Origin: Mesotaenium endlicherianum
Lineage: Eukaryota
Direction: 5' to 3'
NCBI GenBank assembly: GCA_009602735.1
Contig: WELA01000694.1
Location: 36,306-100,305, forward strand
Length of the DNA stretch: 64,000 nt
Each line of letters opens with the position of its first letter. Positions within the stretch are counted from its first letter, which is position 1. The position numbers were made by a program, and so were the translations under genes. Under the pieces are notes generated by a model, which was not told where the DNA came from, ran no database searches, and worked only from the letters and a program-made list of their open reading frames with translations. Positions 7,371-64,000 of this stretch are shown piece after piece.

Positions 7371-18782
<11,412 letters not shown>

Positions 18783-33890: not shown

Positions 33891-34536
33891 GTTGAGTGGT
33901 AATAAAGCCAACGACGTTGGATCACCGAGGTTTTCGTCACTTGACCTAAAGGCGAAGATCCTGTGTGTCATAATCAACTGCCATAAACTTGCGCAGTGGG
34001 GACGATGGCACATGCTGGTCCAAGCGAGTCCAAGCAGGTCCGAGGCTTGAGCTCACTCGCTAACCGCCAATACTCCCGAGTTCTACCCATGGTTCTGCAT
34101 GGTTCTACTAAAATGCTTGGCGCTGCTTGGCGCACACTACGATGAAAGTATCCCTTGTGTTCCGAGGGCATTGAAAGACAATATTTGTCGGCTGGTTCTA
34201 ACTTTTGGCCACAGCCTCAGACAAAGCCAGCAACTTGCAGTGACGTGAAAGTGACAAAAGTGTCACAACTTGGACCTGGCACCCGCCAGCTCACTGAGAT
34301 TTGCTCGGTCCGACCGGGTCGATTGAAGCTCAGGAGCGTGTAACGACTCACAGTTACTTTTCCATTACATTAAGAGGCCCATAAATTGTCAAACCTCAGT
34401 GCTGAATCTAGCAGATCTTTGAGATTAGAAGGCTCCTGAGTCCACACTCCAGTATCATGCATCGGTTTGTGGTCAGCGTGCGATCAGAGCAGACCAGAGC
34501 AGACCCCCTGGATTCAAAACTTTTGTAATTTGTCAT

Positions 34537-34980
34537 TTTGGATGTTATAAAAGTCGATCAAAATGAAAAGGATGTCAAATAACATCCAATTTAATGAAAG
34601 CAGATGTCACATAAAACCCGGAAATTCTTGATTTGGATGCCAAGAAAATCCAGTCATGAAATTTTGGGTGACTTTTTTAACCAATAGGGTACGGGGCTCC
34701 AGGGGCTAGGCCCTAGGAGCCACGGCCTACAACTTGTCATTGCATCGTCACAGTGAGGCTCCATCTGACGCCTGGGTGTTATTTGTGATTTTGGATGTTA
34801 AAAAACCCGATCAAATCAAAAAGGATGTCAAATAAAATCCACTTTGTTGAAAGCGAACGTCACATCAAACCCCGAAACTATTGATTTGGGTGCTAAGGAT
34901 ATCCTGTCATTAAATTTTGGATGTTTTTTCACCAATAGGGTACGGCACCAAGGGCTAGGGGCCAGAGCCTACAACTTATC
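34537..34980. repeat. Diverged tandem duplication, two copies of about 200 bp with a period near 253 bp
   Basis: Both copies (about 34537-34738 and 34790-34980) run tttggatgtta...aaaaggatgtcaaataa...ttgatttgg...aaattttgg...ccaatagggtacgg...gggctagg...gcctacaactt. Confidence 0.8.
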
Positions 34981-35282: not shown

Positions 35283-36600
35283 TGTCGCGACTTCCAACCT
35301 CTGAACGGTGCCACACGCCCAACACAAGTCACGACCGACCAAGTACGGAAAGTCAGCGTTGACTCACCGACCAAAGGACTGAATTATCTCAGTCAACGGT
35401 TATGTCAAAGTCGTTATCATTGCCAAAGTGGTCACGACCTGTCAAACCCCACACCCAAGGATGGATGGGGATTTGGACGAAGTAGTCAGCCGAAAGGCTA
35501 GGGGCCTGTAAACACAATTTGCAATAAATTTATGCTGGTGTGTGTTTATTTTCTTTGACTAACACAAAGTTAGTACAATTCAACAATTATATTATACCGT
35601 GGAAAACGAAAAACTTTGCTTCATTTCAACACCTCCAATTTTAATTTTTGTTGTTGTTTGTGATATGATGTAGGAAAAAAATTATTGAACCAGTAATGAG
35701 CCAGCCCAACAAGTGCCAAGAAAGGTGCTGATTAATTGGCTATCTAAGCCAAGTACAGCAGGGATGTTGCAGAGGCGTTGTGTGCCACCTTGGCCAAGAC
35801 CCTCAAGTGACTAAGCACGGCTTGAGCGTTCATCTCAAACGCTGCCAGCCGCCAGCCACCTAGGCATGATTGCCAACTGAAAGGCTAAGCAGTCACGCGC
35901 AACAGTCACAAGGCATGTATGCATGTTGAGTGACAACTTCGAAGCTGTTTGAAGGCTGCTAGGTAAGGACGGCATGCAAGCTAAGCGCTGTGACTAAGCA
36001 CTGGCATTCTCGAGAGAGGATAATGTGTGGTGCCTACGAAAGGCACAAGTCCCGTCTGAAGCTGCCTCATTCTGGCTCGTATCGCGTTGTCAAGAAAGCG
36101 GAAGACACAGGTACAAAAGGAAAGGAGAAGACGGAGCGCGAAAAAGAAGGAGTTCCCAAGCCCACAGAAGAGCCGAGACGCCACGCTTCTGCCGACGCTA
36201 GAAGATTTCTTCTCAAGTGTATCATAGAAAGGTTAGACCTCAAGATTTCCCAAGAGGGGATCTCGCTGGTAGAAGGTAGAGAGCTGCAGGATAGAATCTG
36301 TTAGGAGATTAGCACAGATTCGGGTCAAACACCACAAGCGTGCGAAAGCCGCTTAAAATGGTGAGTGCTGTGTTAGTTTCCAAGTTCTCAGAAGTCTCAA
36401 TTGCCGAATTGCTAAAAGCATGAGTAGTATTAACAAGTAAAGCTCTCAGTGAAGAACTGAGTGAGCCCAGCCAAGCAGTGAAGAACTGTTTAGGCGCGGT
36501 GTTGAGTAAAGAGCTCAGACCAGGCCAGCATAGATGTGCAATTCCAGAGTTTTGTAAGCTGTAACTTGTGAAAGTTAAGCGAAAGTTTTGAGGGACGATC
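35283..36600 (+). repeat. Terminal repeat A1 of element A (contains a 178-bp AT-rich insert at 35509-35686)
   Basis: Colinear and highly similar to 53488-54156 plus 55473-55954. Confidence 0.9.
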
Positions 36601-37764
36601 TTCTCTGGATCTGGCATGGCCTGTTAAGCTGCTTAGACGTGATTTTTGCAAACTACAAACTTGTTCATTCTGTAAACCCTCAACTTGGGCAAAAGCCTGT
36701 GTGGAAGTAAGACGCTTCTGTCCTTGTAAGGGAAACTGAAGATAAGCTAGCTTTTCGAAAATTTCTGCAAAGTGTTGAACGAACCAGTGGAAACGGTCTC
36801 ACTATCGAGTAGTTCGATGAGATCTATTGGGCAGAATTCTTTGAGAAGATTCGGAAGGATTCTCCTTATACGCAATGTGTCGCATTTATAAGCTTGGTTG
36901 AGTACTTGGATAAGGATGCCCTGTTGCTATATTGCCAATTTCGGAAGGATGAGGATCTCACCCAAAAATGGGCATTTGGAGAGCAAAGAAGGGCTAGGGA
37001 TTTGAAAATCCAGAAAGAGACTGCGAAAGCCTGAATATCTGCTTTGTCTTCACGAAGAGTATTGCCAACTGCACCTGTTGATAGCATAGACTTAGCTGCA
37101 CTAACACAAGAATTAACAGAGACCATGAGGCAACTCACTGAGGGCCAGCAACGGGCTGCTACTCGGAATGATGATGTCGGCTCTGTTGCAAAGTTGCGTA
37201 AGGTGTGTGCAGAATTGTCTGAAAAGATTGCTAATGCTCAGGAACGAGTAATGCGCAGAGCTGCACCTTTTAATGGTCAGCAAGGCGATAGCGCCACGAC
37301 AGAGGCAAGCCATGCGCAAGCCCTGGCTAGCTGTCGTAAGGATATGGAGGCTGGGGATGAACAGCTAGACTCCGAGCATTGCCTGCGTCGTTTCTTTAAG
37401 TTGCTTGAAGCACGAATCCCAGAGGATCGCAGTCTTAAGGTGCACCGTTATGTACATTTTGTCCGTCAGAAGAACGAGACAGTCATGGAGGTTAAATCCA
37501 GATTGGTAAACCTCGCCAAAAAGGCAAAAATCTACGAGCCCAGAATAGTGGCTGACAAATTTCTGTTATGCTTGGGCAAAGAAATAGATCGTGAAGTCAG
37601 GCCACACCTGTCCTCGAAGCACGGGATAGACTGGGACATTGACGAGGCGACTGAAATAGCACGCAATGTCAAAGAAGGTAAAGTGTGGTATAAGGAGGCT
37701 TCCAGGACGCTTATGGCTCCTGAGAGGAGGGAGGAATCCTCTCCCCCTAAGGCCAACAGCTCTA

Positions 37765-38706
37765 TGTAACGATTTGAGCTTTTTAGGCGTATTTGGGACG
37801 TTTTCCCAATTACCTAAAATACGTAATACTAATTATCATAAGTTATTTGATAAATGATTGCATCACATTGAATTATTCGCCACACACGTGTGCCGATTAA
37901 TTCCCGGTCGATTGGCGAAACGACCGAGATACTATTGTAAAAAGCGTCGTAACGTAATTTGACTACTTCGCAAAAGTACGACATAATTATTCATAAAGTT
38001 ACTTTGAATAATTATGAGATGATAATTTGATTAATCATTGTTTGATTAAGTTATTTTGATTGTCATTGTTACGAATAATGGACAATCACAGATTTCGGAT
38101 TACGACTAGTCGTAATACGAAGAAACTGTCGTATCATTAATACGAACAAACAGTCGTAAAGTCAAACGAAGCGAAATATGCAAAGTCGCTTTGCATCCGA
38201 GCGGATTCGAACCCGCGACTTTCGTTTGAAACGTTCACAGCTAACCAATTGGCCAAAGTAGCTTCTTAAACTACCGGTTCATGACGAAAGCATGTGTACG
38301 CGACTCCGCGATCAATCGCGACTTTTTCGGAAAGTCGCGAGAACGCGAAAACGCCCGTTTGGCGCGAAACGGTTTTTCGGAAACCGTCGAAAAGTCTCCA
38401 AACGGCCAACGGCGCGTTTCGAGCATTCGGCCGAATGGGACACGTCCCTTCGACCGTTTTCGTTGAACATGAACCAGTGCCCTAGCTGGTGACTCGAAGC
38501 ACTCCAGTGCCTCATGTTGTGCAGGTATAAATACCTACAGAGTCATTGTGAGTGCAACTCTCACAAGTACACATTCTACGTTAGTTTTCACTTTTGCTCT
38601 TTCGAGTATTCGTCAATTTCCACAAGTATACAGATTTTCCTCCCACTTGAATTAAATATTCCTTGAATACCGAGAAAAGATCCTCTCGAAAAGCAGAAAC
38701 GTCACA
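37765..38706. mobile_element. Solo LTR (942 bp) of an unrelated family inserted in element A gag
   Basis: TGTAACG...CGTCACA termini; 5-bp TSD CTCTA at 37760-37764 and 38707-38711; TATA-like tataaata near 38526. Confidence 0.88.
38193..38262 (-). ncRNA. Degenerate tRNA-like segment (Pol III A and B boxes) inside the solo LTR
   Basis: Minus strand reads GCTACTT-TGGCCAATTGG-TTAGC...GCG-GGTTCGAATCC-GCTCGGATGC; 70 nt with tRNA-like box spacing, but the acceptor stem does not pair. Confidence 0.55.
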
Positions 38707-39417
38707 CTCTAATTTTTGATTTAAGAAAAAGAGTGAAGGGCTGTTGAAATTGCGGAAAATCGGGACATCAGAAGAGAGATTGTCCGTACCCGGATGCTAA
38801 GCAACTATCTGCTAGCAAGGCGCAGATATGCGCACATTGCAGCAAGAAGGGACACTCAGAAGACGAGTGCTGGTCTAAGAATCCAAATCTAAAGCCACCA
38901 TGGGCAAATGCTGCCACGAAAGAGGCAGACAAGGAGAAAAAGAAAGAAAAGGGTAGCTCCGGTAATCGTAAGGATAACCAAAAGTATGACGCTATGAGTG
39001 CGGAAATCGCTGAGTTGAAAGCTCAAGTTGCGAAACTAAATGCGCCTAATGTCTACTATGATGCAGTTGTTGCAGAAAAGATTGTCTGCGAAGGCGAGAA
39101 GTTGACGCCTGAGAAGGCTGTGGGTACAACGGCTGCCGAGCGAGCAAATCACGGCTGTCTGGTACCAAGGAATGAAGCTTCCTCAGACTTTCCGGATCAC
39201 TCTGGATGAAAATGAGATCTCGCAGCTGCGACAAGCCAGGCCAGGGACGCGTAAGACATTTAGTTTTTCGCTGGAGAAGCTGAAGGCCCTGGTGGAACAC
39301 CGGATCCAGCATGCTCCTTTGCTTTCTCTCGCTGATTTTCATATCATCTACCCGTTTACGGTTGAAGAAGCCGAACATTAGCTGGATATAGCTGAGGAGG
39401 GTGCAAACAGCGCCTCA

Positions 39418-39819
39418 TTGCCTACCAATTTCAGCACCGTGAGAGTGCAAAATAGGGATGGTGCACTACTATTCAACAATTGGGCAGCCCCCAACATTCC
39501 GTTGGATACGGGTGCACAGCCAGTCATCCTGGGAAAGCGAGTTGTGAAAGCTCTAGGATTGACCGCAAGGAACATGAAAGAGAGTCCTTTCCAGTTGAGG
39601 ACTGCCTCAGGGCAAGTCACAAAGTCTTGTGGGATTACTCGCAAGCCTGTGGAAATCACAGTAAATTTAGGGAAACTTGAAGAGGCGTCACTACTCATGG
39701 AGTGCACAGTGACAGAGGCAGAGAACTATGATGCTCTCTTGGGAACAGAAGCACTGATTCCCTTGGGTATGGTCATTGATCTGCGCAAGCAGAGAGTGAC
39801 TTACCAGTCAACAGATTAG
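39418..39819 (+). pseudogene. Element A aspartic protease
   Basis: IPLDTGAQPVILG, LRTASGQ, YDALLGTEAL retropepsin motifs. Confidence 0.85.
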
Positions 39820-40152
39820 CAGCCGGCAGGAGAAAATCCCGTGAAGATGGTTTGCACAGGAGAAGCAAACTACGGGCTGCTAGACTGCTGCGTTAACAAC
39901 AGGTACCCAGAATCTTGCGACAACATCATGAAGCACGAAGTGGAAAGCTATACGAGCATCAACATGCCAACACCCTTGGTATGGCAATCTTGGAGTCTGG
40001 AGCAACTAAAAACTGTGAGTAACAGGGACCGCGGCCTGCAAGAGCTGCTGCCAGTACCTTACCCAGTTACCTCTGCTGCAAACCTGATGCCGGGAGTTGA
40101 GCCGCTGCCGCAAGGCATTATCAGGATGGGAGATCCTTTTTGTAAAAGGGGA

Positions 40153-41100
40153 GTGGTGGTGTTGGAATTGTTCGCCGGACTTGGGTCTGGGATCATAGCA
40201 TTGATCCAGCGAGGGATACAGGTGGCCAAAGTACTGTATGTGGACAATGATGACCACGCTTTTTGAGCACTCAGAAAAGTCATGAGTCAGATGTGGCAAA
40301 TGCATCACTTTCAGGGGTTGGTGCCCCCATACTCCAATGTTGAGCGCATCGCTAGAGGCAACATTATTGATGTGAAGCCTGAAGACCTGTATGGCTACAC
40401 GATTGACTGGATCTTTGCTGGATTTCCTTGTCAACCGTTTCCCAAAGTTGGGAACCGGAGGGGATTCAGTGATCCACAAGCACACTGGGAATGGATGGTG
40501 AAAATCATCAGCATGTTGCGGGAACGTCAGCACTATCACCCACCAGTGTTTGTGATTGAGAACGTGCATCTAGGAATGGATTACAAGCAGATGAAACCGG
40601 GAGAGCCATGGCTGATTTTTGACTCCACATTGGGACATCTTGTGCTAATCAACGACGCCAAGCACAAAGAATTATCCCATAGGGCCAGATAATTTTGGAC
40701 CAACGGCATCTCTATTGAGATCCTGTGAGAGATGGAGGACCTTATACGACGATCACCGACGGCATTGTCAGTGGGAGAGGCGCTGGCAGTACGTACCAGG
40801 CCAGTGACCAGGAGGGACTCCTATCCATAGTGCGTCATCAACGAACCAGGTCAGCCAAGGGTGGTACTGCCTACCTTCACAGCATATCCACGATCCCAAG
40901 CCTTCATAGGTGGTGGACCAGGAATGGTCAAAGACATGCATAAAAGAGATGCCGTTTGGAGAGAGCCTACTGCAATGGAGAAGGGAAACTGCCTTGGAAT
41001 ACCTGACACCAAAGCTCGGCAGATAGTCGGTGCTGTAGGGTCAGATGAAGCTGCGAAGATTTTTGGCAACATGATTGGACAGCACTCTATGACTTGGCTG
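40153..41100 (+). pseudogene. Element A-encoded C5 DNA cytosine methyltransferase domain (premature stops)
   Basis: Motif I VLELFAGLG (~40159), motif II-like YVD, motif IV AGFPCQPF (~40417), motif VI FVIENV (~40549), motif VIII HRAR*FWTN (~40678), motif IX-like REPTAMEKGNCLGIP, motif X-like IFGNMIG; all in the protease reading frame. Confidence 0.88.
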
Positions 41101-42762
41101 GTGGAGACACTCATGACGTGGCAGCAATTGACCTTCACCAACAAGCCTATGCCGAGGCCAAGATCAGGGACAATTGGGGCCAATGTGGTGCCAACATCTG
41201 ATCAGAGGGCTGTCAACATCGCACATCAGCAACAAGAAGAATGCGGTGCGCAAAGAGACAATGCGGCAGCTGCCAGAGACAGAGCATCAGGGAAGCTGAA
41301 GTAGCTGAACTGAGAGATGCCAAGATCTGTTGGACTGGATCGATAACCGGACCGCTGAATTACAAGCACCTCTGGAAAGAGAGGATACACCCATGAGGGA
41401 CCAGGCGCTTGAGCAGACGACGCCGTTGCCAAGCGCAGAATACGATACGCAGGACATCCCGTCATCTCTGAGAAACGCCACTCACAGTCAGATATTTGGG
41501 AGTCCATCTCCCGAAGCCACGACATCAAGGCGTGATGAGACCCTAGACGATGCCAGATCAGGGTATAATACCAACCTCAGCCCAAGAGCAGCTGGGCGCG
41601 GAAACCACTAGCAAGAAAGCTCAAGTAGCTGGGAAGCTAACCAAAAGTGTCCAGCGTCTTCACCAGAGCAAGCGCCGTTACAAGATATGTCAGAGGAGTC
41701 TGAGAAGAAGACCCCTGAGCCAATACTTGAAGACTTTAATTACTATTTAAACCAAGCATCAGTGCAAGAACGCCAGTGCAATATTGGTAAATGGGCCAAA
41801 GAGAGTAGCCAAAATTTAGGAGATTCTAGAGGATCTGCAAAGACCATATGCCTCTAAGTGATATTCGAAGAAAGTAAAGAGGAGTCAGGCAAGCAATTGT
41901 CCACAACACCTTCTTTGATGAGCCTAGAGCCACAGGCTAAGGGGCAACAGCAGGGTTCAGCCAGTCAGACAGCTGAAACCATTGCAAGGCAGATCATGGA
42001 GCAGCTCGTGACAGCAGACGCTAGATGGCACAAGGAAGAGTGTAATGAATCAGTATATTAGTTGACATAATATTCATTTAAATAATTTAGTTAAATAAGT
42101 TCAGCCTGCTGAACTCTAGTTAATGATCAGTCTGTTGGACTTTATATTTAATATCAGTTTAATGACTCGGCCCGATGTAGCAGGCTGAGGTCACCTTAAG
42201 TCAGCTTGCTGACACATTCTTTGACAGCCAGCTGACTTCCGTACTCGGTAGCAGCGAACTGCCTCGATATGCATCTAAGTGTGGTATGCTAGATGAATGG
42301 CCAGATGACATCCCTATGATGGATGACGATTCGGGATGATGGGACATGGCGGTGGATTTGGTTAACCGAGGTCCTACCAACGTGGTCAACTCCCGGGTAG
42401 GCGGTGCCATCACACTGGCCGTTGAACAGTAAACTCATTCCATGTACATATGCTAGGCATTGCTCTCGAGTTCGGCATTCGAAAACGAGGCCAACTCTCT
42501 TGTACAGCTTACTGAGAGAGATCTGAATCCAAGGCGAGAAGCCATTGATACGCACTGTCTTCTAACCTTGCTTATGTATGAGTTTACTGATTTGCATTAT
42601 TGATGCTAGTTTACTCGCATTTGACTTACGAGTATTATTCACTGCTAGTGTGTTGTCCTTTGCCGTTTAACCAGTTAACGGAAAATACCATAAAGATTAC
42701 TTGCTGATATAAAGATCTTTATTAATTGTTAATCGCCTATTTGGTAAGTCGATTCATTTCAG

Positions 42763-42774
42763 TGGTATCGGAGC
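42763..42774 (+). promoter_or_regulatory. Primer-binding site of element B (initiator tRNA-Met type)
   Basis: TGGTATCGGAGC one base after the 5' LTR; one mismatch to the usual TGGTATCAGAGC. Confidence 0.9.
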
Positions 42775-42795
42775 AATTATCACAATCTTCTTTGT

Positions 42796-44256
42796 ATGGT
42801 AAAGACAAGGTCTCAAACTAGCAACTCCCGAGACATGGAAAACCGGGATAACGAGAATGTCGAAAACCAGGCGGAAAGCCATGTAGCGGGAACCCGTACC
42901 TATTCTGAGGCAGTAGCAGATACTGCAGCTAGAGAGGCTGCAGATGAGGCAGCTGCTATTGCCGCAGTCGCAGCACAGCAAGCTGAGGAGGAGAGAGCCA
43001 GATTAGAAGCTGAACAAGTAGCAAAGGCCGCTGAAATACAGAAAGGAGGGAAGGACAGCCAGCTGATGAGCGCACTGTTGAAGAACTTATGGCATCAAGG
43101 GCCAATGTTCTGAACCCACCTTCTGCTGTACAACTCAATGTACCCCTAGGTCAAATACGTGACCAACTGAATGCGACAGGAATTGCTGCTGCAGGAGCGA
43201 AAGGGATTGTTGAGGACACTACTCAGCGAGTAGATGCCAATGCTGCTGCTGCTGCATTTGCTAATCTACCGCCCCAAAGTGTAGACTTGGGAGCATTGTT
43301 CGTTCAGATGCAGTCGCAAATGGCGACCATGTACCAGTCCCAGCAGGAGGACAAAAGAATAATTATGTCCCTACTTCGGGACAGAGACCAACTGGGGAGT
43401 CAAACCACTAGTGGTGGTGGCCGAGGGCCTAGTAAGCCCAAGCCGAAACCTCCCCAGGACTATGACCCTGAGGGAAATAGAAAATATTACCTGATCAAGT
43501 TACTCGCGGATGTTGAGCAGTGGCTGGAGAACTACCCGGAACTGCAAGATCACGAGAAGGTCAGGCACACCGGTGCGCTACTGAAAGGCAGTGCCGCAGA
43601 CTGGTGGCTTTACTGGAAGGAAGAGCGTAAGGCTCGGCAACTCGGTGACCCTACGTGGGTAGAGTTTGTCGAGAAGTTGCATGAGAAGTTTGATGTCATC
43701 AACCAGCAGGAGAAAGCTATCTATGCGATGATCTCCCTGACACTGAAGCAGACCACTTCAGTTGCTGAGTTTGCTCAAAAGTTCCAAGAGAACATGATGA
43801 AGCAGCCAGATTTGCCAGAACGGTATAGGATAGCATACTTCAGGTATGGCTTGAAATCCGAGGTCTCTGGTCATTTTGCTGAGAAAAAGTATGAGAAACT
43901 GGCTGACTTGATCCAGGATGCTGATGCCTGGGATCAGCAGCAGTTCAATCACAAGCGCCAGAGTAATGCTTTGGTGTCTAAGGTTGTCAAAAAGCCCCAC
44001 GGTTCCTACAATGCAATTGAAGGAGACCAGGCTGAGGATGATGAGGGTGATGGATAGGAGTATGAGTATAATGCCATACAGTCTAGAGGTAGAGGTAATT
44101 TCTCTCGAGGCGGCCATGGAAGAGGTGGTGGTAGGACTAAGCCGAGACCAGCCTCAACAAAATCCACTTGCTACCATTGTCAGCAGCCAGGTCACTTCAG
44201 AGAGCAGTTTTCAGTCAAGCACCTTCCTAAGGTCGAGAGAAAAGACCAGCCTTTAA
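42796..44256 (+). pseudogene. gag: Element B gag (frameshift and stops)
   Basis: MVKTRSQ start; LLKGSAADWW, PTWVEFVEKLHEKF, LKQTTSVAEFAQKFQ; zinc-knuckle remnant CYHCQQPGHFREQ near 44168. Confidence 0.88.
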
Positions 44257-44344
44257 AAGACAGCAACAGTCAGTAATCCAGTCTACTAACTGTGAGGATG
44301 CTAGAAACAGTGAGTCGTCACTAGCTGCCCTCGTAGCAGGTATT

Positions 44345-47300
44345 GTGGGTCCTGCTGAATTGGATTCACTATGCATGCCTGACAACCAGATAAAGGAGAC
44401 CATCAGTAATATAGACGTCCAGAGAGTGCACACTCTGGATGCTCTTGTTCCACCTGATGTCCAACATTTCTTTGCTACGTCAGGAGAACAATGCGAAAGT
44501 CAGGAAAAGACAGTCCCCCCTATCCTACTGCATTGCATGATTGCAGGTAGGAAGGTGAGGGCATTTGTTGACGGAGGGGCGTCACATACTTTTATCCACA
44601 AGGACTTAGTTAAGCGGCTAAGGCTGCCTACTGTCACCCAAGGGAATAGAAAAAAATTCCTTGGAGATGCCTCAAGTATCCCGGGAGGAGTTATAACCAA
44701 GCCTATTGAGGTCCAGTTAGGTTCTGGCATTGCAGTTCTAACTGAAACGCTTACATTTGAGGTACTCAACACTGGCTTTTATGATCTCGTGCTAGGCAGG
44801 TCCTGGCTTAATAGACATCAAGCTGAAGTGTGTTGGAGCAGAGGTACAGTTAAAGTGAGAGGAGCCAGTGATGGGCAGACTGACTTGGCACCCACCAGTG
44901 CTCTTCCTCTTGTCCTGTGTGGATGGCAAATGAAGGAAAAGAAGAGGCGTCCAGAAGGATGCAAATTGCTGAATGCAATGGAGTTCGTCAAAAGCTGGAA
45001 CCGGAAGGAAGACAGAATGTTCTGTCTGCTGCTAAGAGAGGTACCTCCTCAACCTGAAGAAGTGGTTGAGAAAAAGGTAAGCCCTCCGGAGCACCCTACT
45101 GCTGCAAACATTGTTGCTCAGTACACGGATGTGTTTAATATGCCTCCAGGACTACCCCCTAAGCGGGAAGTAGATCATAGGATTGATTTATTACCTGGTA
45201 GCCAGCCACCCTGGCAACGCACATATGGCTTATCTTATGTGGAGAGCGAGGAGTTGAAAACACAGATTGCAGAGCTTGAGGAAAATGGTTATATTTCTCC
45301 CAGTAAATCNNNNNNCGAACGGCGCACCCAACCTATTTGTTAAGAAAAAGGATGGCAGTATGCGAATGTGTGTGGATTACAGAGCCTTGAACAGAATTAC
45401 AGTAAAGAACAAGTATGCTTCACCCAGAATCAAGAACTTGCTTGATACCTTGTCTGGTGCTAAGGTGTTCAGTAAGATAGATCTCAAGAGTGGTTATCAT
45501 CAAATCAGAATTGCTGAGGGGGATGAACACAAGACTGCTTTCCGCACACGTTATGGACACTATGAGTTCAACGTGATGCCATTTGGACTGACTAATGCTC
45601 CTGCTACCTTTATGGGTGCTATGAATGACATTTTCAGACCTTATTTGGATAAGTTTGTGCAAGTTTTCCTGGATGATATTTTAATCTTCTCTAAAGATGA
45701 AGCTCAGCACACTGAACACTTAAAAGCAGTCCTGGACACTCTGCGGAAAAATCACTTATATGCTAAAATGAGCAAGTGTGATTTCTTTAAGGAAAGTATT
45801 GAATTCTTAGGCCACGTTGTCAGTAAAGAGGGCATCAGTGTGCATCCTAAGAAAGTCCAGACCATAAGGGACTGGCCAGTACCACAGTCTGTCTCTGAAG
45901 TTAGATCCTTCCTCGGGTTGGCTAACTACTATAGGAGATTTATTGAGAATTATTCCACAAAGGCCAGTAAACTGACTGACCTTACTAAGAAAGACATCGG
46001 GTATGTGTGGGGGGAAGAGCAGCAGGCTGCCTTCCAGACCCTTAAAGATGCCCTTTGTTCTGCCCCAGTGCTAGCCGTGTATGACCCCAGCAAACCGGTG
46101 CAGGTGGTTACTGATGCCTCTGATTTTGCCATGGGTGCTATTTTGTTGCAGCCTGCTGACAAAACCACAAAGGATGGTAAGGTACGGCAGGAGTGGCATC
46201 CTGTGTTGTATGAGTCTATGAAATTTAATCCAGCGGAGATTAATTACTCAGTGCATGATAAAGAGCTGCTAGCTATCATTCATGTACTCAAACAGTGGAG
46301 AGCATACTTACATGGTAAAGCTTTTAAGGTGATTACAGATCATCTAGCTCTGACCCACTTTCAGAAGAAGTCCAAGCTGTCGAGGAGGGAGAACCGCTGG
46401 AGCCAGATGCTGGAGCAGTTCCAAGTCCAGATCGACTACAAACCAGGGAAGTTGAATCCTGCTGATGCACTCTCTAGAAGACCTGACTTGCAAGAAAGGA
46501 ACTTTAGTCAGCATACTGTAGATAAAGTCCTGTGTGCACTCACTTCACTAAAGGTGAAAAAGTCCTTCCTTGAACAACTTAGGAAAGCCTACCTTTCTGA
46601 CCCAACATTTGAGCCCAGCCCCACTACTGGTATGTGTCGTGCTACCGCACTCGGGTATAAGCTCAAGGGAGGGGTCTGGGTGACTGAAACCACTTCAGGC
46701 AGGCTGAAGCTGGTCATTCCTAATAATTTGGAAATAAGGTCTCTCTTACTGAGTCAAGCTCATGACAGTCTCCTGGGTGGACATTTGGGGCAGGCCAAAA
46801 CTGTTGGCAAACTGGCAAAACATTATCATTGGGAGGGGTTACCCCGGGAGGTCTTGAAATATGTCAAGTCCTGTGACCAGTGTCAGAGAAATAAGTCTCG
46901 GCACACACCACCCGGAGGTCTCTTGCAACCGCTACCCATCCCAGCGGGACGCTGGGAAACTATATCCATGGACTGGGTGGTCTCACTACCAAGAACTGCC
47001 AACGGGCATGATTCAATACTGGTAGTCGTGGATAAACTGACAAAAATGGTCATTTTTATCCCCACAACTGTCAAAGTGACTGCACTCGAAACAGCGAGAC
47101 AGTTTTACAACCATGTAGTATGCCAACATGGGCTCCCTTCTAATATCATCTCAGACAGAGACTCAAAATTCACCTCTAAGTTCTGGAGAGCTTTAATGGG
47201 GTTAATGGGAGTCAAACAGCTGCTCAGCACAGCAAACCACCCTGAGACTGATGGGCAGACTGAACGAACTAACCGAGTTCTGCAGGAGGTGCTGAGAGCA

Positions 47301-48065
47301 TATATTAACCAAAAACAAGATAATTGGGATGACCTGTTGCCTCAAATTCAGTTTGCGGTCAACAGTGCGGTGCACACGTCAACGGGCAAGAATCCTGTTG
47401 AACTGAGCCTGGGTAGAGTCCCTAAGTCTCCTTTAGATGTACTGGGGGAGTCTTTAACTGACCCTAAAGGGATTGACAACCCGGTCTCCCTCCAGTTAAC
47501 TCAGGAGTTTGCTGACACCCTGTCAGATGTCCAACAAAACCTGCACAAAGCCCAAGAAAACCAACAAAAATACGCTAATCAACACCGTCGGGAGCTGACA
47601 TTTTCTAAGGGGGATTTAGTCAAACTGCACTCTCAGCACCTGTACCTCCCTGGTGTGGTCAAGAAAAAGCTTGGCCCTGTCTGGGTCGGTCCATATCCGG
47701 TGGTGCGTCGTGTCGGTCAGAATGCTTACAAACTGAACATGTCAGCTGAATACAAGGGTCACCCGGTCTTTAATGTCTCCTACCTGGAACCATACATCAA
47801 AGGTAATTCACTGTTCACAGGTCGGTAACCTGTCCAACCGGGACCGGTCCCCGCTGTCCGGCACGGCGATCCTGAGGAATATGAGGTCGAGGAGATTTTA
47901 AACGCTCGCTCGGTCCGTTGATCGTCTAAATATGTCATGAAGTACCTCATCCGATGGAAGGGTTACGATGCCTCTGGGGACACTTGGGAATTTAAAGACC
48001 AGCTGACCAATGCCAAAGGGGCGTTGAAACGGTTCCACCTCCGGGCGGCTGGGACACCGCCCTAA
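44345..48065 (+). pseudogene. pol: Element B pol: protease, RT, RNase H, integrase, chromodomain
   Basis: [74 protein letters not shown]...[33 protein letters not shown]; past stop 47826: EYEVEEIL...YLIRWKGYDASGDTWE. Small N gap at 45310-45315. Confidence 0.95.
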
Positions 48066-48350
48066 CTGTCCCTTCAGTAGACATGGGAAGGTGACAGGAG
48101 GTCCTGTCTCCATATAAGTTGGAGGGGGATGTGACAGTTAGTGACAGTTGTGACAGGCAGCCCACCTTTAAATTTAAGTTGGAGGGAGTGGTAGTTTCTG
48201 ATCACCATATTACACACTCAACCTGCGCTCACACTCACTTGCTCTCTAACTCAATTTTTCCTTACATTCACTCACACCAGGTATTCCACACTAGGAACTC
48301 TCCCGATCGCGTCCCTCTTCATCAAGGGCACTCAGTAGCGGCTAAATATC

Positions 48351-50048
48351 ATGGCTTCACTAACTGCATTGTGTTTATGATTGAGCAGGATGACTCAAAA
48401 GTCGGAACTCAAGAGGAAGAGAAGGGCGGGAGAGGCACATGCAGGATACTTGCAATTCCGTGGAGACATCGAATCATCTTCCATCACCGCGCGGGAATCA
48501 CAACGACTCCAACAACAGCGGGAGGCACAGAAGAAGAAGGAGGAGTAGGAACAGGCCAGACTGAGGCAGGAAGAAATGGACAGAAAAGCTGCAGAGGAGG
48601 CCAAGAAAGCGGAGGAGGAGAGGCAAGCTGAGGAGAAGCGGAAGCAGCAGGCTGAAGAAGAAGAACAGAGGAGAATCAGTAGCTACCGCTACACAGTGCT
48701 GGGCAAGGGCTTTGATCTACTGGAGGAGGCCTTCAAGTATGCCCAGAGGAGCCGCAGTGAGTCGCAGAAGGAAATCCTCCAGAAGGAAGGGGAGACATCC
48801 GAAAACTTTGACAAGTATATAGAGGTCGGCACAGGGCTCCTCCACTACCACGATTATGCCAGGATGGTAGGTTATACCATCGGAGAGGCCAAGGCAATGG
48901 CCCAGGTGAACGAAGCAGAAGCTGTCTCGATACCTGGTATCTGGGGGGCAAATAGGGTCAGGATGATCCCCATGGACGCGGACAGCTTCAAGGACTCAAC
49001 ACCCCATAACAGGTTCAAGGCCATGTACAACGAGGTGGAGAGGAGGAGCTGGGAATTCGTGGCCAGGGAAACCAGTCAGCTGGACTTTGCAGGGCACTGG
49101 TACCCTTGTACTCTCAAAAAGACAGACGCTGCCTTCTTCCAAAAGCCCACTGATTGGCGGTGGATGACCATCAACATGAGGGACCAGCAGAATGACAGGG
49201 CGACGGATGAGGATTTCCTGACAGACCTAAAGGGGAACATAGTATTGCCCCCTCACATTGCGGCTTGGGACCCAAGATTGGATGGAGTCAGAGACTGCAT
49301 GAGCCAAGAGATGCAGGGGGACAGAAGCAGGGCCCGAGAGTCATTCTCCAAAGGGAAGCACGCTTATGCCAAATGGGCAAGTAAGCAGGGGGAAAAGGAC
49401 CTCTATGCGGTCCGGACTCAGCAGCCCCCACCAGCACCCAAAAGGGGAAGGTCAGTAGGATATTCTTTTTCTCGGGAAGAGCTGGAGCAGCTGACAGAAG
49501 AGACCCCAGAAGTCTCAGAGGAACCCGGGGACGGAGAGGAGGAGGAGTCAGAGGAAGACGAGGAGGAAGGCGAGGAGGAGGACACTAGCCCCGCCGTGAT
49601 CCTGACGCCTGCCACATCCCCTATAAGGGAGAAGACGGGGTTGGCCATGCAGCAACTCGCTGAAGAGGAGGATATCACTTGGCTGGGGACTGCCAGAGGA
49701 CAGACCCCATCTCCAGGCAAGGAGACCCAGTCAGACAGGGCAGACAGGAGGGCTGCTCGGGAGATAGCCAGAGGCCTGCCAGCATCTCCCTCGCAGAGAG
49801 GGCATGTACCCTTGGCTCATGTCATGCAACATCCTTCTGGGATGCCGGTATACGTACCTGTCAGTTTGAGGGCTGCCCAGGAGAAGGCTGCCTCCCTCCA
49901 GACTGTGCAGGAGGAAACAGCCCAGTTACTGCGTTCTCCGCGGGGTCCTTACACGGAACCTCCCTCTCTGACAGGCTTCAGAAGACCCCAAGACAGAAGG
50001 AGGTCTGGCTCCCCTGAGTATAGAGCCTCAGGGACATCTCCCTCCTAA
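48351..50048 (+). pseudogene. Element B additional sense ORF between pol and the 3' LTR, unknown function (open from 48576, 490 aa)
   Basis: ATG 48351 is in frame with ORF 48576-50048, separated by two stops (TGA, TAG); charged coiled-coil-like N-terminus, globular-looking middle, acidic and Pro/Ser-rich tail. Confidence 0.7.
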
Positions 50049-52158
50049 TGGCAGCAGGATGGGGACGGAAGGGACAGCACGCTGTTATTTGTGTTAGTGT
50101 TGTCGAGGCGACAACATGATAAGTTGGAGGGATTGTAATGAATCAGTATATTGGTTGACATAATATTCATTTAAATAATATAGTTAAATAAGTTCAGCCT
50201 GCTGAACTCTAGTTAATGATCAGTCTGCTGGACTTTATATTTAATATCAGTTTAATGACTCGGCCCGAAGTAGCAGGCTGAGGTCACCTTAAGTCAGCTT
50301 GCTGACACATTCTTTGACAGCCAGCTGACTTCCGTACTCGGTAGCAGCGAACTGCCTCGATATGCATCTAAGTGTGGTATGCTAGATGAATGGCCAGATG
50401 ACATCCCTATGATGGATGGCGATTCGGGATGATGGGACATGGCGGTGGATTTGGTTAACCGAGGTCCTACCAACGTGGTTAACTCCCGGGTAGGCGGTGC
50501 CAACGCACTGGTCGTTGAACAGTGAACACATTCCATGTACATATGCTAGGCATTGCTCTCGAGTTCGGCATTCGAAAACGAGGCCAACTCTCTTGTACTG
50601 ATTACTGAGAGCGACCTGAATCCAAGGCGAGAAGCCATTGATATGCACTGTCTTCTAACCTTGCTTATGTATGAGTTTACTGATTTGCATTATTGATGCT
50701 AGTTTACTCGCATTTGACTTACGAGTATTATTCATTGCTAGTGTGTTGTCCTTCGCCGTTTAACCAGTTAACGAAAATTACCATAAAGATTACTTGCTGA
50801 TATAAAGATCTTTATTAATTATTAATTGCCTATTTTGTAAGTCGATTCATTTCAAAGAGGAAGTGGCTAAGACGGCAAGCACTCTGCAATAGGCCATCGT
50901 CAACCTGGCAAAGCTCAACACAAATAATGATGGAGAGCCACCACCACCTGGAGTGGAGAAGTCAATTGAAGATGAGGCAGAGATGCCAGACCTTCCAGAG
51001 TTTGACCTGTCGTCAGTCACCAATGAAGAGGAGATTCGGGAAGAAATTCCACGTTTCCCTACCCCAGAGCTGGACCTCTTGGAGTTACAGGAGCTCAGGA
51101 CGGATGAGTGGGTGGCCGACCACTTGATAATAAAGGGGCCCAGCCTGGCAGATCTATACAACGATCTGAGATCGCCTACATCCAGTACTCCAACCGCCAA
51201 TTTTCCAGCACCAGGAGCTACCCTGCATCAGCTACAACAGCCGCAGGAAGTGGCTGCCTGCACCGCTAAGGTGGAACCAACACAAGGTAATACTCACGGT
51301 CGCGCAAGCAGACCAAGAAAGGTGGCCCGGGAAGAAATGCACCTTTCAGGCGGATGCTGATGCGTTAACTCAAGTATAGGGAAGAAGCTCAGAGAGAAGG
51401 GGTTCCGAAAGGAACCATGGCTCCTCCTCCGCAATCAATCTTGGAGATTTTGCAAAGAGAGGGAGAGGATGGCTTGATTCGTAAAGCCATGGCATTTGGA
51501 ATTCCCATTCCCATGGTGCGACCTTCATCCACTGGAACGTGGGAGAAGGATAGTTCAGCTCCTAGGACACCTGCGATTTCTGAAAGGGAACTGGTAGAGC
51601 TGAGAAGCACCATAAGCCGCGTGACAGCAGAGAATGCTGTGTATGCACAACTAGCTGCGGCTCAAAGACCGCAGACTTTGACACAAGCATGGACGGTTAC
51701 GCCACCAGCCAGGGAGGAGTTTGGCACAACCGTTGCGCGTATTGCTACCATTGAGCGCGAGTGGGGTTGGACAATCGACTCCAGAGCCGATCCAGCAGGG
51801 TGGCCTTTGCCAAACCCGCCCCCACCACATAAAGAGGGAGGAACGGGGACCAGCTGGACTGCAGCCGATGAAGAAAGGTTCTTGAGGCAGCCCATCCGGA
51901 GGCGTCTCACATACTCCACTCAACAGGAGAGGCGACGATCCATCGGAAAGGTGAAAAGCCTAAGAAGCAGGCCGCCGAGCCTAGTTCAGCGGAGGAGCAA
52001 GCTCCAAAGCTTGCCACTCCACCGCCTAACAATCAGGCAGAAAAGCGTGAAGGTCAGGATAAGGGCGGAAAGCCCCCACCTGAACCCAAAGAGTAGCAAC
52101 TACTGGATGCCTGTGTTGGGGAAAAGCAGCCGAAAATTGAGGTTTTTACCATAGGAAA

Positions 52159-52711
52159 ATGGTCTCAGCCCAACAGAGACCACAAGTAGAAAGGCTGCTG
52201 AAGAAGCACCGCAAGGTGTTCGCTTTCACTAAGGAGGAGATTGGTAGAACCACTGCCAGTATGTGTGAGATCACACTAATTATTGATAACCCATTCAGAC
52301 TTACGCCGCATACGCTCAATCAGACCAAATGGGACTGTGTGGAGAAAACTTGCCAGGAGCTACACAAGCTCGGCATGATTGAGAAATCAATCTCAGTACA
52401 TGATGCTCCCACAGTAGTATTTGCCAAGAAGGATGAGGCTGGCAATTATACAGCCACTTGTATGTGTGGGGACTACAGACGACTGAATCTCCACACGGAA
52501 TCAGACAGCTATGTGATGCGCAATTGCCACCACCGGAAAGGTGTTCAGCATCATCGATTTACGCCAAGGCTTCAACCAGATCCCTGTGAAAACAAAAGAT
52601 CGAGGTAAGACCGCTTCCTGGGCTCAAAGGGAACTTTGGCAATGGACGGTAATGCCGTTTGGGCTGAAAAATGCCCCAGCTATCTTTCAGAAGACTATGG
52701 ATAAAGTGCTG
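52159..52711 (+). pseudogene. Element A reverse transcriptase, N-terminal part only
   Basis: CMCGDYRRLN, FSIIDLRQGFNQI, WTVMPFGLKNAPAIFQKTMDKVL; the YxDD motif, RNase H and integrase core are missing after ~52711. Confidence 0.9.
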
Positions 52712-53228
52712 GAGGCGTCATTTGAGCGCATGATGCCTGCTGCTCTGGACAATCTAAAAATTGCACAGGATAGAGACGGAACGTTACGCCAGGATGCAAG
52801 ATGGGAGCTATTGCCTGCGAATGACGCAGTTCCAAGAAGGAGACCTCGTCTATCGCAAGCGCCAGACCAAGACCACCATTGACACCAGTTCAGGTGCAGT
52901 GATCTTGCGCGTGAAACATGCGTTTGACAATGGTGGTTTGGAACTGGAAGGTTCTGATGGTAAGACCATGAGGGATCACGTGCAGAGCTGCTCGCTGTTC
53001 CATTTGCCCAATATCGATCCTATGGTTAAGGCTGTGCCAGAGGAATTGGTGCCAGCCACGCCTTGTGCCAGCTGCAAAGTGCTGGATGATCAAGAAGCAA
53101 TGGTAACTTGCAATAAGTGTAGTGCCCGTTGGCACACCTTTTGCATTGGTGAAGAAGAGATAATGGCAGGACGGTGGGAATGTCCTGATTGCCTTCCTAA
53201 AACCCCCAGCCGCAGAGCTAGGAAATAG
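52712..53228 (+). pseudogene. Element A integrase C-terminal region plus PHD finger
   Basis: ALDNLKIAQ...FQEGDLVY is typical of the region after a gypsy integrase core; CASC...MVTCNKCSARWHTFC...WECPDC is a C4HC3 PHD pattern (~53064-53193). Confidence 0.8.
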
Positions 53229-53274
53229 AAGCTTTCAGCGGAAAGGCAGGGACGCCTCAGCTGAAAGGGAGGGG

Positions 53275-53485
53275 TGTAAGGGAAATGAGTATAAAATAAC
53301 TTTTTTGAAGATTTCTACTGAGTGTGGAATGCGCCACCGCACGATGCCAGTGCAGGCAGACCAAGAATGGGTCAACCCCCAGCCAGCCTGCCACCGACAC
53401 ACGTGCGAGGGTCGATCAACCCGGTCGATTTCTCACGTGCCGCAACGCACGTGCCAGGGTAGGTCCGACGTTGTTAGGCACGACA
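53275..53485 (+). repeat. Repeat B1 of element A, directly after the PPT
   Basis: tgtaagggaaatgag...gttaggcacgaca, 211 bp, matches 55955-56166. Confidence 0.9.
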
Positions 53486-54156
53486 GCTGTCGCAACTGCC
53501 AACCACTGGACGGTGCCACACGCCCAACACAAGTCACGACCGACCAGGTACGGAAAGTCAGTGTTGATTCACCGACCAAAGGACTGAATTATCTCAGTCA
53601 ACGATTATGTCAAAGTCGTTATTACTGCCAAAGTGGTCACGACCCGTCAAACCCCACACCCAGGGATGGATGGGGATTTGGACAAAGTAGTCAGCCGAAA
53701 GGCTAGGGGCCTGGAACCAGTAATGAGCCAGCCCAACAAGTGCCAAGAAAGGTGCTGATTAATTGGCTATCTAAGCCAAGTACAGCAGGGATGTTGCAGA
53801 GGCGTTGTGTGCCACCTTGGCCAAGACCCTCAAGTGACTAAGCACGGCTTGAGAGTTCATCTCAAACGCTGCCAGTCGCCAGCCACCTAGGCATGATTGC
53901 CAACTGAAAGGCTGAGCAGTCATGCGCAACAGTCACAAGGCATGTACGCATGCTGGGTGACAACTTCGAAGCTGTTTGAAGGCTGCTAGGTAACGACGGC
54001 ATGCAAGCTAAGCGCTGTGACTAAGCACTGGCATTCTTGAGAGAGGATAATGTGTGGTGCCTGCGAAAGGCACGAGTCTCGTCTGAAGCTGCCTCATTCT
54101 GGCTCGTATCGCGTTGTCAAGAAAGCGGAAGACACAGGTACAAAAGGAAAGGAGAA

Positions 54157-55472
54157 TGAAATGAATCTTGCTTATTCAAGATTAATATATTTCATTTAAA
54201 TATAAAAAATCAGAGATAGGTGGAAGCGTGTGAAACCAGGGAGCGATCTTCGCCCTTATAATGAATACCGTTTACTCATCTATAGCCCTTGACTCACTTA
54301 TCGTAGTGTGCCATAGTTGCACACGAATACAAGGCACAAGAAAGAGGCGAGCTTGAGGACTAGAGCTTCTCCTTTAGAAACTCCTGACCTCTTGCCTACC
54401 AGGCATACAAGCATGTGTAAGCACATACACAACATCAGGGGACTGAATAGCAAAGGCGCTCTCATTCAGATGACCATAAAGTAGCTGAAACACATCCCAC
54501 TGACTTAGGTGCAAAAACCATGGAATCTGTCCGCTGTGTGACCCCAAAATTTCAGAGGGCATAACTCTGTCAATACTACTCCAAATTGAGCAAACTTAAC
54601 GGCAACGGATGCATCTTGACGAGACCTTTCCAAAAAGTCCTAGTTCGCTCCATTTAGAGCGCAAACAAAGCAGCCATGGCAATTTCCGTGAAGGCTGGTC
54701 ATTAGAACGAACCCAAAAAGTGCACACATCACTTGCAAGTAGAAATCCGACTGTAAAGCCTACTATCCAGAGTGAGGGACCACGAGATCCCAGCCTGCTA
54801 TGTGCCTAGTGACCACCTGGTTGACCACGGCGCAAGGTGCGCCGTTTCGTGGGAAACCCGTTAAGTTGGGACCCACGGATCTAGGTATAACGACCATATT
54901 AATTGGTCGGTTGACTGAAGTCCTAACTGTTCAGTTGACTGACGACGGCTCCGCCTACCCAGGAGTTAACCACACTGGTAGGACATCGGTTTACCGAATC
55001 TCAGTCGACCTCCCGACTTTCAGTATACTACGGTCACATGTGCCAATCTACAAATAACAATCTAAATGAATGTATCTATCCTCAGCGTACTGAAGCTAAG
55101 TATATTGACTAATATCAAGCGAGCTTACTATATGTCAACCTACTGATATTATATCCTATATATAACTGATATATAAATCTCAGCAAACTATACTATGATA
55201 CAAAAGTCATCCTGCTGACCTTTTCATCAATGTCAGCAAACCACACTATGATACAAAAGTCATCCTGCAGACCTTTTCAACAAAGTCAGCAAACTACACT
55301 ATGGTACAAAAGTCATCCTGCTGACCTTTTTGACAAAGTAAGTAAACTCGCATTACATCGACATACATTCATTTAGATGAACTCGCTCATGTGAGTATAC
55401 AGACATAATACTTATTTAGTGTTATATTTATATATGCAATTAATTGAATAAATAATGAACTGATTCATTACA
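54157..55472 (-). mobile_element. Solo LTR (1316 bp) of a family related to element B, inserted in A2
   Basis: Minus-strand termini TGTAATGAATCAG...GATTCATTTCA as in B; TSD GAGAA at 54152-54156 and 55473-55477; shares the box cgcctacccaggagttaaccac...ggtaggac with B-family LTRs. Confidence 0.9.
55180..55348. repeat. 53-bp tandem repeat, about 3.2 copies, inside the solo LTR
   Basis: tcagcaaactatactatgatacaaaagtcatcctgctgaccttttcatcaatg units start at 55180, 55233 and 55286. Confidence 0.9.
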
Positions 55473-55954
55473 GAGAAGAAGGAGCGCAAAGAAGAAGGAG
55501 TTCCCAAGGCCACAGAAGAGCCGAGACGCCACGCTTCTGCCGACGCTAGAAGATTTCTTCTCAAGTGTATCATAGAAAGATTAGACCTCAAGATTTTCCA
55601 AGAGGGGATCTCGCTGGTAGAAGGTAGAGAGCTGCAGAATAGAATCTGTTAGGAGATTAGCACAGATTCGGGTCAAACACCACAAGCGTGCGAAAGCCGC
55701 TTAAAATAGTGAGTGCTGTGTTAGTTTCCAAGTTCTCAGAAGTCTCAATTGCCGAATTGCTAAAAGCAAGAGTAGTATTAACAAGTAAAGCTCTCAGTGA
55801 AGAACTGAGTGAGCCCAGCCAAGCAGTGAAGAACTGTTTAGGCGCGGTGTTGAGTAAAGAGCTCAGACCAGGCCAGCATAGATGTGCAGTTTCAGAGTTT
55901 TGTAAGCTGTAACTTGTGAAAGTTAAGCGAAAGACTTGAAGGGCGATTTTTTCT

Positions 55955-56166
55955 TGTAAAGGAAACTGAGTATAAGATAACTTTTTTGAAGATTTCTACT
56001 AAATGTGAAATGCGCCATCGCACGATGCCACTGCAAGCAAACCAAGAATGGGTCAACCCCCAGCCAGCCTGCCACCAACACACGTGCGAGGGTCGATCAA
56101 CTCGGTCGATTCCTCACGTGCCGCAACGCACGTGCCAGGGGAGGTCCGACGCTGTTAGGCACGACA
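55955..56166 (+). repeat. Repeat B2, right terminus of element A
   Basis: tgtaaaggaaactgag...gttaggcacgaca; similarity to B1 stops exactly at CGACA. Confidence 0.9.
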
Positions 56167-57145
56167 GGAAGCTTGTAGGGCTCTGATTGTGCTCTATGTT
56201 ATAGTGTTAAATGCATTAACATTGGAAACCTTAAAAATACTTGAAATATACACTACTAGCCTCCTACATTATTTTGTCACATGTGATGATTGTTACTTTG
56301 CATTCATTTTTTGCAATCCGATTATGCATTTTTCCTTCACGGTAATTTTTTGTTGTTCATGTAATACTATGTACTTAATTTGTGTTCTTGGTGTGTCATT
56401 TGCCATCTTTTTGTCCATATATATTACTCAAGCGATTGTTGCAAATGCTACAGTTTGTAGTCAAAATGAATGTCAAAATATTTAAATACATTGAAAGAGT
56501 ATAAATAGTGATTTTGCGAGAAAATATCAGAGACCTTCATATTATTTGAACACCCGTGAGTTAGAAGACTTAAGCCCATGTTATCAAATCTATGTAAGAC
56601 CTTTGCCGACCTCTGCAAACCGTACAATTGTGCTTGATGTATTTTTCCTTGTTGTGGTAAGCTTTGAAAGCTATTGCCCGGCACGAGGATGCCTCTTAAA
56701 ATCCTTCACTTGAGTCGGGTGTTGGTTAAAATCCATATATTCACTGTCAGGGTGTTGTCGAAATCCGAGGATTTTGTCGAATCCTGGGGTCAGGGCCCCA
56801 TTGCGCACATTTACGGAGGTCAAAGCAGCTAAGATTGACTCCAGACCTCGTAGGCCTGTCAGATAAATCAGTTGAACCTCGGGGGTTCAATTGAAACCCC
56901 GGTTGACCTCCGTGAAGTCGCCCTAATAGGACCGCACAAGTACTTTAGTGACCTCCGATTATCACCGACCAGGCCGGGCATTTCAAATTCTTTTGCATTG
57001 TACAAGAAGATCAGAATTAGAAAAATTGTACAATGTACCCGAAATTCCTCACCAAATTCAGGCCTTGTGCTTGTATGTTGACACTGCAGCCAAAGACAAA
57101 AGTTATTCATTGCCGTGCCCCTGCATTAGGTCATTGTCGCCATCC

Positions 57146-63955: not shown

Positions 63956-64000
63956 ATTTACCTTAAGGGTGTCATCTGGCCACTCATCTAGCCTATCACA

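Follow-up and report, generated by a model that had tools for sequence, protein, structure and literature searches.

Repeat layout and coding content of the element

The stretch of Mesotaenium endlicherianum DNA considered here, 64,000 nucleotides (nt) of contig WELA01000694.1 (the window, to whose positions all coordinates refer), carries at 35283..56166 a decayed gypsy-like retroelement with split direct repeats. The repeats, A and B, are arranged as A1–open reading frames–B1–A2–B2. The original prediction placed A, of about 1.15 kb, at 35283 and 53488 and B at 53275 and 55955; comparison of the window with itself by BLAST bears this out, and the layout of this copy is confirmed as real. A1 (35283..36606, + strand) forms the left end, starts with TGTCG and contains an insert at 35515–35686. 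A2 (53488..55954, +) contains a reversed solo long terminal repeat (LTR). Once the 172-bp insert of A1 and the 1,316-bp solo LTR of A2 are subtracted, the net length of A is about 1.15 kb. The two A copies align in three pieces, 35283–35514 with 53488–53719 (93.5%), 35687–36129 with 53714–54156 (97.3%) and 36125–36606 with 55473–55954 (96.5%), and identity by segment ranges from 93.5 to 97.6%. B1 (53275..53485, +), which ends in CACGACA, is 93% identical to B2 (55955..56166, +; E = 2e-85), which ends in CGACA. As predicted, the element stops at the final base of B2, and no copy of B precedes A1 in a BLAST search with a word size of 7.

The termini are TGTCG...CGACA, and a polypurine tract (53260..53274, +) lies directly 5′ of B1, both as described from the sequence at the outset. 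The two ends of the element coincide with the sequence at which B1 and A2 meet, CGACA-GC-TGTCG (53481..53492), and the 2-nt spacer between B1 and A2 makes this junction a palindrome. It is kept in relatives and is the putative integrase attachment site. The element is flanked by GAAA on the left and GGAA on the right. These differ by a single transition and may be a decayed 4-bp target duplication, a reading that also fits the duplications found in relatives. High identity between A1 and A2 ends at 36583, the last 23 bp being 74% alike. In keeping with the prediction, no primer-binding site of the transfer RNA (tRNA) type was seen after A1, on inspection by eye without comparison to a tRNA set. 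A partial B-like piece, b′ (36725..36776, +), lies inside the frame leading into gag; it corresponds to the first 52 bp of B and is about 79–80% identical to it (79% to B2, E = 6e-6). That b′ is recopied in every cycle was considered and ruled out, since it is about 80% identical to B, against 93–98% between the A copies.

The coding order is a gag-like frame with zinc knuckles, a protease, a C5 cytosine DNA methyltransferase (DNMT), the 5′ half of a reverse transcriptase (RT), a deletion, the tail of an integrase and a PHD finger. The gag-like frame (36711..37770, +) is broken by stops and has no defined start; it is assigned to gag by its position and by the zinc knuckles that follow the insert within it, and 37035–37766 gives no Pfam match. 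The two zinc-knuckle-like Cys/His motifs (38736..38860, +) were read by eye from the translation. The aspartyl protease (39382..39816, +; PF13975, E = 3.2e-8) shares its frame with the stop-broken DNMT (40140..41150, +; PF00145, E = 1.9e-12), which thus lies between protease and RT in the pol reading frame. Among solved structures, the nearest to the DNMT is DRM2 (E = 0.003). The protease–DNMT region matches protein P0216 of Klebsormidium nitens (E = 3e-30, 24% identity). The RT (52141..52720, +) is frameshifted and is cut off by an internal deletion, beyond which lie the integrase C-terminal region and the PHD finger (52758..53225, +; PF00628, E = 1.6e-5). The integrase core had been described as deleted, and it is gone; the deletion is larger, however, removing about 650 codons by comparison with protein P0153, among them the 3′ half of RT, RNase H and the integrase zinc finger as well as the core. 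No tyrosine recombinase was found in 13 frames of the window, the deleted part of this copy being unreadable. The DNMT and RT are separated by about 2 kb (41300–42040 plus 50855–52140), as against about 250 bp in a related locus, L027 (see below). Two open stretches of 155 and 261 residues in this interval gave no credible Pfam match, and a long linker or an unrecognised insertion are candidate explanations for the additional sequence.

Four insertions enlarge the element from about 9.6 kb to 20.9 kb. The 172-bp insert in A1 is AT-rich and has no clear target duplication. A 942-bp solo LTR of another family (37765..38706; TG...CA, 5-bp duplication CTCTA) lies in gag, and the reversed solo LTR in A2 (54157–55472) has the 5-bp duplication GAGAA. 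The largest is an ordinary Ty3/gypsy element of 8.8 kb (42041..50854, +), with two 721-bp LTRs (96.8% identical), a tRNA-type primer-binding site, the integrase core domain rve and a 5-bp duplication, AAGAG. With its equal LTRs and tRNA-type site, this nested element serves as an internal control and is no part of the element that hosts it. It carries an extra frame of 499 residues between integrase and the 3′ LTR (48549–50045, +), for which Pfam gives no match. One of the seven gaps of N in the window, 6 bases at 45310–45315, falls in its RT, at a change of frame.

Other copies and related loci

Copies of the element's own family occur in other sequencing data. Runs X1 and X3 contain the unique right flank letter for letter, at a depth of 42–62, and thousands of short contigs that match the element. 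For the B–A junction, 98 contigs of X1 were aligned to 53425–53550, and 8 of the 21 rows with loose ends were examined. Among the loose-end rows listed, four contigs depart after 53485 and seven join before 53488, and their flanks are unlike one another (agreement 0.54 and 0.45). A contig of X6, from another study, likewise ends at 53485. Since contigs end and start at 53485 and 53488 with unlike flanks, other copies begin and end at the junction. The summed X1 depth in bins across it, 20,809, 18,154 and 16,268, is continuous, which indicates that the junction itself is also common; among the contigs listed, one crosses it, with about 44 and 31 bases on its two sides. No single record covers the full length of the present copy. 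When about 6% of an RNA run was aligned to 52400–56700, 78 reads were placed, most of them in the solo LTR and a few in the A2 tail. As 90% of the aligned reads continue unlike the window, they allow no conclusion on expression.

A HMMER search with the 101-residue integrase tail returned 255 proteins at E ≤ 0.001. The best among the matches listed, in a protein named jgi/Mesen1, is 73% identical over 62 residues. Word-seeded protein searches with the integrase tail (against longer proteins only) or with the protease–DNMT read-through found nothing. Domains were scanned in 28 long proteins among the 150 listed: all 28 have the integrase zinc finger and the PHD finger, 27 have rve and none has a tyrosine recombinase. 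Four related loci, examined in 20 reading frames, likewise gave no tyrosine recombinase, and rve is present in L027, L015 and L072. In a midpoint-rooted RT tree of 46 rows, which used the half-length RT of the window and held no DIRS rows, the window falls in a clade of 36 rows (support 100/99) that excludes 10 other gypsy rows. Members of this clade include five K. nitens, four Closterium and two liverwort proteins. Rows that bear a chromodomain lie outside it, the window having a PHD finger instead. The sister of the window is L055, a placement that is not firm (95/78). P0216 has the order protease–DNMT–RT–RNase H–integrase, with the DNMT ahead of RT as in the window. The DNMT also precedes RT in P0211 and L027, and in one subclade (P0064, P0107, P0130 and L072) it lies between RNase H and integrase. 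Its presence at two positions among subclades indicates that the domain has moved within pol.

Loci in metagenomes were sought with an alignment of 20 pol proteins; the scan was partial, and what follows concerns the best 80 of 367 confirmed loci. Viral contigs gave no locus in one search and one distant locus in another. Forty-five of the 80 constitute a single AT-rich family with the DNMT ahead of RT. After exclusion of 12 (seven sharing a flank with another locus, four cut by a contig end and one truncated), 33 of these remained. Their right ends are of two kinds, purine tract–B–A–B in 15 and purine tract–B alone in 18. In all 15 B–A–B ends the B–A spacer is 2 nt long (GC in six, AC in six and GT in three), B ends in (C)GACA or in a transition variant of this sequence and A starts with TGTC or TATC, a junction like that of the window. 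The A2–B2 joint, in contrast, takes at least eight forms in the 15 loci, with blunt joins, 2-nt overlaps and losses of more than 200 bp. B1 and B2 differ by 0.084 within a locus, against 0.11–0.13 between loci. After the purine tract B starts with AT rather than TG in this family, and this end of B is therefore not an integrase end.

Both ends are visible in eight loci. Four have the layout A–internal–B–A–B, with an exact 4-bp duplication in L026 and L046 and one with a single transition in L004 and L055. The other four have the layout A–internal–B, with exact 4-bp duplications in L015, L071 and L080 (which contains a partial additional A) and none in L022. In sum, five duplications are exact, two differ by one transition and one is absent. 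Among 62 loci with at least 500 bp past pol, many of them without upstream DNA, an upstream repeat was found in four; it is always A and never the part adjacent to the purine tract. Outside the AT-rich family, 9 of 20 loci carry the junction motif past pol (seven of them independent; 1.1 expected by shuffling). L062 represents a third family with B–A–B, and L027, which is nearly intact and whose protease and DNMT are the closest to those of the window, carries both rve and the junction. It had been suggested that independent loci be examined for the same ends: own-family contigs share the termini, and relatives share the layout and the duplications. Two ordinary LTRs with a primer-binding site, or a tyrosine recombinase, were the outcomes set against the prediction, and none appeared in own-family contigs or relatives.

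The relatives also bear on priming. The final bases of A in the AT-rich family are CA, and the sequence beyond them is reverse-complementary to a site in A that lies about 30 nt past a TATA box. In all ten loci compared, eight of the AT-rich family together with L027 and L072, 11–16 nt at a site about 25–35 nt past a TATA-like box in A are complementary to the bases just after A, and in all ten, which represent three families, this self-complementarity scores above all but 0–4 of 200 shuffles. The window has a candidate self-primer site in A (36238..36250, +; A2 copy at 55586–55598), complementary, with G-U pairs, to a candidate non-tRNA primer-binding site at the boundary of A1/A2 identity (36581..36593, +). 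The match is weak here, and two further candidate matches (35491 with 36747 and 36208 with 36840) are no stronger, judged by the match alone.

A proposed integration route through a palindrome within the LTR

We propose that the element is a decayed retrotransposon of the Gypsy-DNMT3 type whose working LTR is B+A, and that its DDE integrase cuts the palindrome in the middle of that LTR, after the ends of the complementary DNA (cDNA) have been joined, rather than the cDNA ends. We give this proposal a probability of about 0.55. Integration at the mid-LTR palindrome as such, including the case in which joining follows insertion, is the more probable claim.

The RNA would start within A1 and end within A2. 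Self-priming at the end of A1, in the manner of Tf1, would initiate the minus strand, as the signature in relatives suggests, and the purine tract observed 5′ of B1 would supply the primer for the plus strand. With B starting at the purine tract and A ending at the priming site, reverse transcription should yield B–A–internal–B–A, which by analogy with LTR retroelements would be an ordinary linear cDNA. Inserted copies, by contrast, start and stop at B–A. The ends of the cDNA would then be joined imprecisely, before or during integration, giving rise to the variation observed at the A2–B2 joint. The integrase would open the B–A palindrome by a cut after CA on each strand, and a cut so staggered would leave 2-nt overhangs and 3′-CA ends of the kind that DDE integrases insert. 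Insertion would create the 4-bp duplication which, like the ends, is observed in relatives. Joining of the cDNA ends followed by cutting at B–A would produce A–internal–B–A–B in which the A–B joint is loose, the B–A junction fixed and B1 close to B2. The repeat-free A–internal–B copies might come from circles with one LTR or from later recombination of B1 with B2. The present copy would afterwards have lost the 650 or so pol codons and gained its four insertions. The element ends, the junction, the duplications, the joints and the priming signature are observed; the RNA ends, the end joining and the integrase cut we infer. The opening of such a junction may be likened to that of an IS3-type circle.

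Several observations weigh against this proposal. A closed circle with two LTRs has two equal junctions, so A–B–A–internal–B would be expected as often; an A–B–A left end is seen in none of the eight visible left ends, including none of the four in loci with a B-only right end. Judged by transversions and indels, only 8 of the 15 loci have a B2 whose nearest sequence is the B1 of that locus, and L022 has no target duplication. The final 23 bp of A2 are only 74% like the bases past the A1 boundary, and this diverged tail is left over by the model, as is b′, which has no role in it. In the window, the 13-nt priming match is reached by 38 of 200 shuffles for A1 and 4 of 200 for A2, with no TATA box at the right distance; in L027 and L072 the windows were chosen after the scan, so their shuffle counts are optimistic. 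Finally, the rve core of the copy's own family is not seen, being deleted here.

The absence of A–B–A left ends would be accounted for by a linear route with the same integrase, in which the RNA extends into B2 and template switches on B1–A2 rebuild an A–internal–B–A–B cDNA whose true ends are processed normally. The diverged 23-bp tail of A2 could then be an inherited joint. This route does not sit well with an A2–B2 joint that varies among close copies with losses resembling those of end joining, nor with a purine tract before B1 and a self-priming site after A1, which delimit an ordinary B+A LTR; there is also no fixed difference between B1 and B2 in the 15 loci. We regard it as unlikely. 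Somewhat less likely still is a variant of our proposal without a free circle, in which the integrase cuts the linear cDNA only at its left B–A junction and inserts both halves, whose ends are later joined by host repair. It too yields a variable joint and a 4-bp duplication and, given a preference for the left junction, no A–B–A; both junctions are copied from one template, however, and there is no sequence reason for such a preference.

The window contains seven N gaps and no long read crosses the element, which is old and multiply inserted, and one might suspect a misassembly, or else ordinary two-LTR elements left as a tandem or recombined remnant. Own-family contigs that stop at the same pair of bases, or run through the junction, speak against this, as do the full layout in four independent relatives, two with exact duplications, and the upstream repeat that is always A in the 4 informative loci of the 62. 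Such an origin is largely refuted and is very improbable. Even less probable is a tyrosine-recombinase retroelement (PAT, TOC, Ngaro) that has lost its recombinase. It is true that the A1–B1–A2–B2 layout defines those groups, according to the accessible part of PMC4157794. Even so, the protease, RT and integrase tail are of gypsy type, the ends are TG...CA, with 4-bp duplications in relatives, and the 28 relatives and 20 frames of four loci contain no recombinase, which refutes this explanation for the relatives. The original prediction, a retroelement with a DDE integrase, split direct repeats, a non-standard cycle and no tyrosine recombinase, thus finds support in the rve of the relatives (27/28, against 0/28 for the recombinase), in the shared termini and layout, and in the 4-bp duplications. 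The DNMT in pol, the B1–A2 palindrome, the near 4-bp duplication, b′ and the extent of the deletion are features beyond it.

Whether the proposal extends to the clade is an evenly balanced matter: in a streptophyte-wide clade of gypsy elements with PHD and DNMT domains, the attachment site may have moved to a mid-LTR palindrome, with self-priming, joining of the ends by host repair, circles as the normal substrate and about half of the copies free of repeats and overlooked by LTR finders.

Surroundings of the element and comparison with known systems

Immediately left of the element, at 34524–34980, is a diverged tandem pair of units of about 210 bp (80% identical). To its right are a PIF/Harbinger-like transposase (56930–58551, +; PF13359, E = 2e-28) with an open frame upstream and, at 59527–64000 (−), reversed and rearranged copies of the nested gypsy family, 81–93% alike, one apparently inside another. 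Two host genes, read by eye from their translations, resemble an amine oxidase (810–2189, +) and a subtilisin-type protease (8400–14600, −).

The original prediction knew of no described case of such an element; one is in print. KnitGypsy-Dnmt3 of K. nitens has, by the legend to Fig. 4c of de Mendoza et al. 2018 (PMC5890265), DIRS-type repeats in the order A–coding region–B–A–B together with Gypsy domains, so the layout itself has already been reported once. Like the present copy it holds a DNMT inside pol. Its termini, target duplication, priming site and mechanism are not described in the accessible parts of that paper. P0216, also of K. nitens, agrees with our copy in domain order and RT clade and is not confirmed as a copy from that paper. 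KnitGypsy-Dnmt3 differs in host and family, the protease–DNMT region of our copy being 24% identical to that of P0216. A streptophyte Gypsy-DNMT3 is mentioned, with no mechanism in the part available, in a 2026 preprint (10.64898/2026.05.21.726589). The description of REXdb, as far as available, has no PHD or methyltransferase group. A literature search, made without subscription journals and Repbase Reports and covering its sources in part, found no attachment site inside the LTR described for elements of the Gypsy-DNMT3 type. The element of the window is very probably a dead new member of this kind and adds one further host. What had been in print as a single sentence of a figure legend is here given an anatomy that supplies a testable cause. 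The B-only copies also have a practical side: where the left end can be seen, three of four are flanked by a 4-bp duplication and lack a pair of terminal repeats, and LTR finders would therefore miss or misname them. L015:538–9666 and L071:4587–13256 are examples of gypsy elements with TG...CA ends and exact 4-bp duplications that have no terminal repeat pair.

Canonical Ty3/gypsy elements share with this copy the purine tract before the 3′ repeat and the TG...CA ends; the copy differs in having no two equal terminal LTRs. Troyka, another atypical gypsy-like LTR element, was considered and ruled out, having CG...CG ends, 3-bp duplications and ordinary LTRs and occurring only in animals, as given in the available text of PMC12440569. 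Tf1/sushi and Tcn1 elements likewise have no tRNA site, and a 5′ region of their RNA is complementary to sequence past the 5′ repeat, a feature that is clear in our relatives and weak in the window; according to the accessible parts of PMC7175516 and PMC6317226, they differ in having two ordinary LTRs and mostly a chromodomain, where the clade of the window has a PHD finger.

PAT, TOC, Kangaroo, Ngaro and SymbioDIRS-Dnmt3 have the same split direct repeats A1–B1–A2–B2 (PMC4157794 and PMC5890265, in the parts available). Unlike them, the element has no recognised tyrosine recombinase and has a purine tract, TG...CA ends and, in relatives, rve and 4-bp duplications. It likely shares with them an intermediate of the circular type. 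If the proposal is right, these elements would represent an intermediate step from LTR elements to split-repeat recombinase elements.

HIV-1 integrase reportedly cleaves the junctions of 2-LTR circles. For foamy virus, cleavage of a palindromic circle junction by the integrase is reported in the accessible text of PMC1180852, where, as in our proposal, a DDE integrase cuts an internal palindrome into processed ends. In both viruses the palindrome arises when the cDNA ends are joined, and ordinary LTRs are retained in the provirus; in the element described here the palindrome would be encoded within the LTR, and its cutting would be the normal route. If the proposal is true, circles, dead ends for most retroelements, would be the normal substrate of this clade, which would be a natural case of what the old circle-junction model supposed for retroviral integration.

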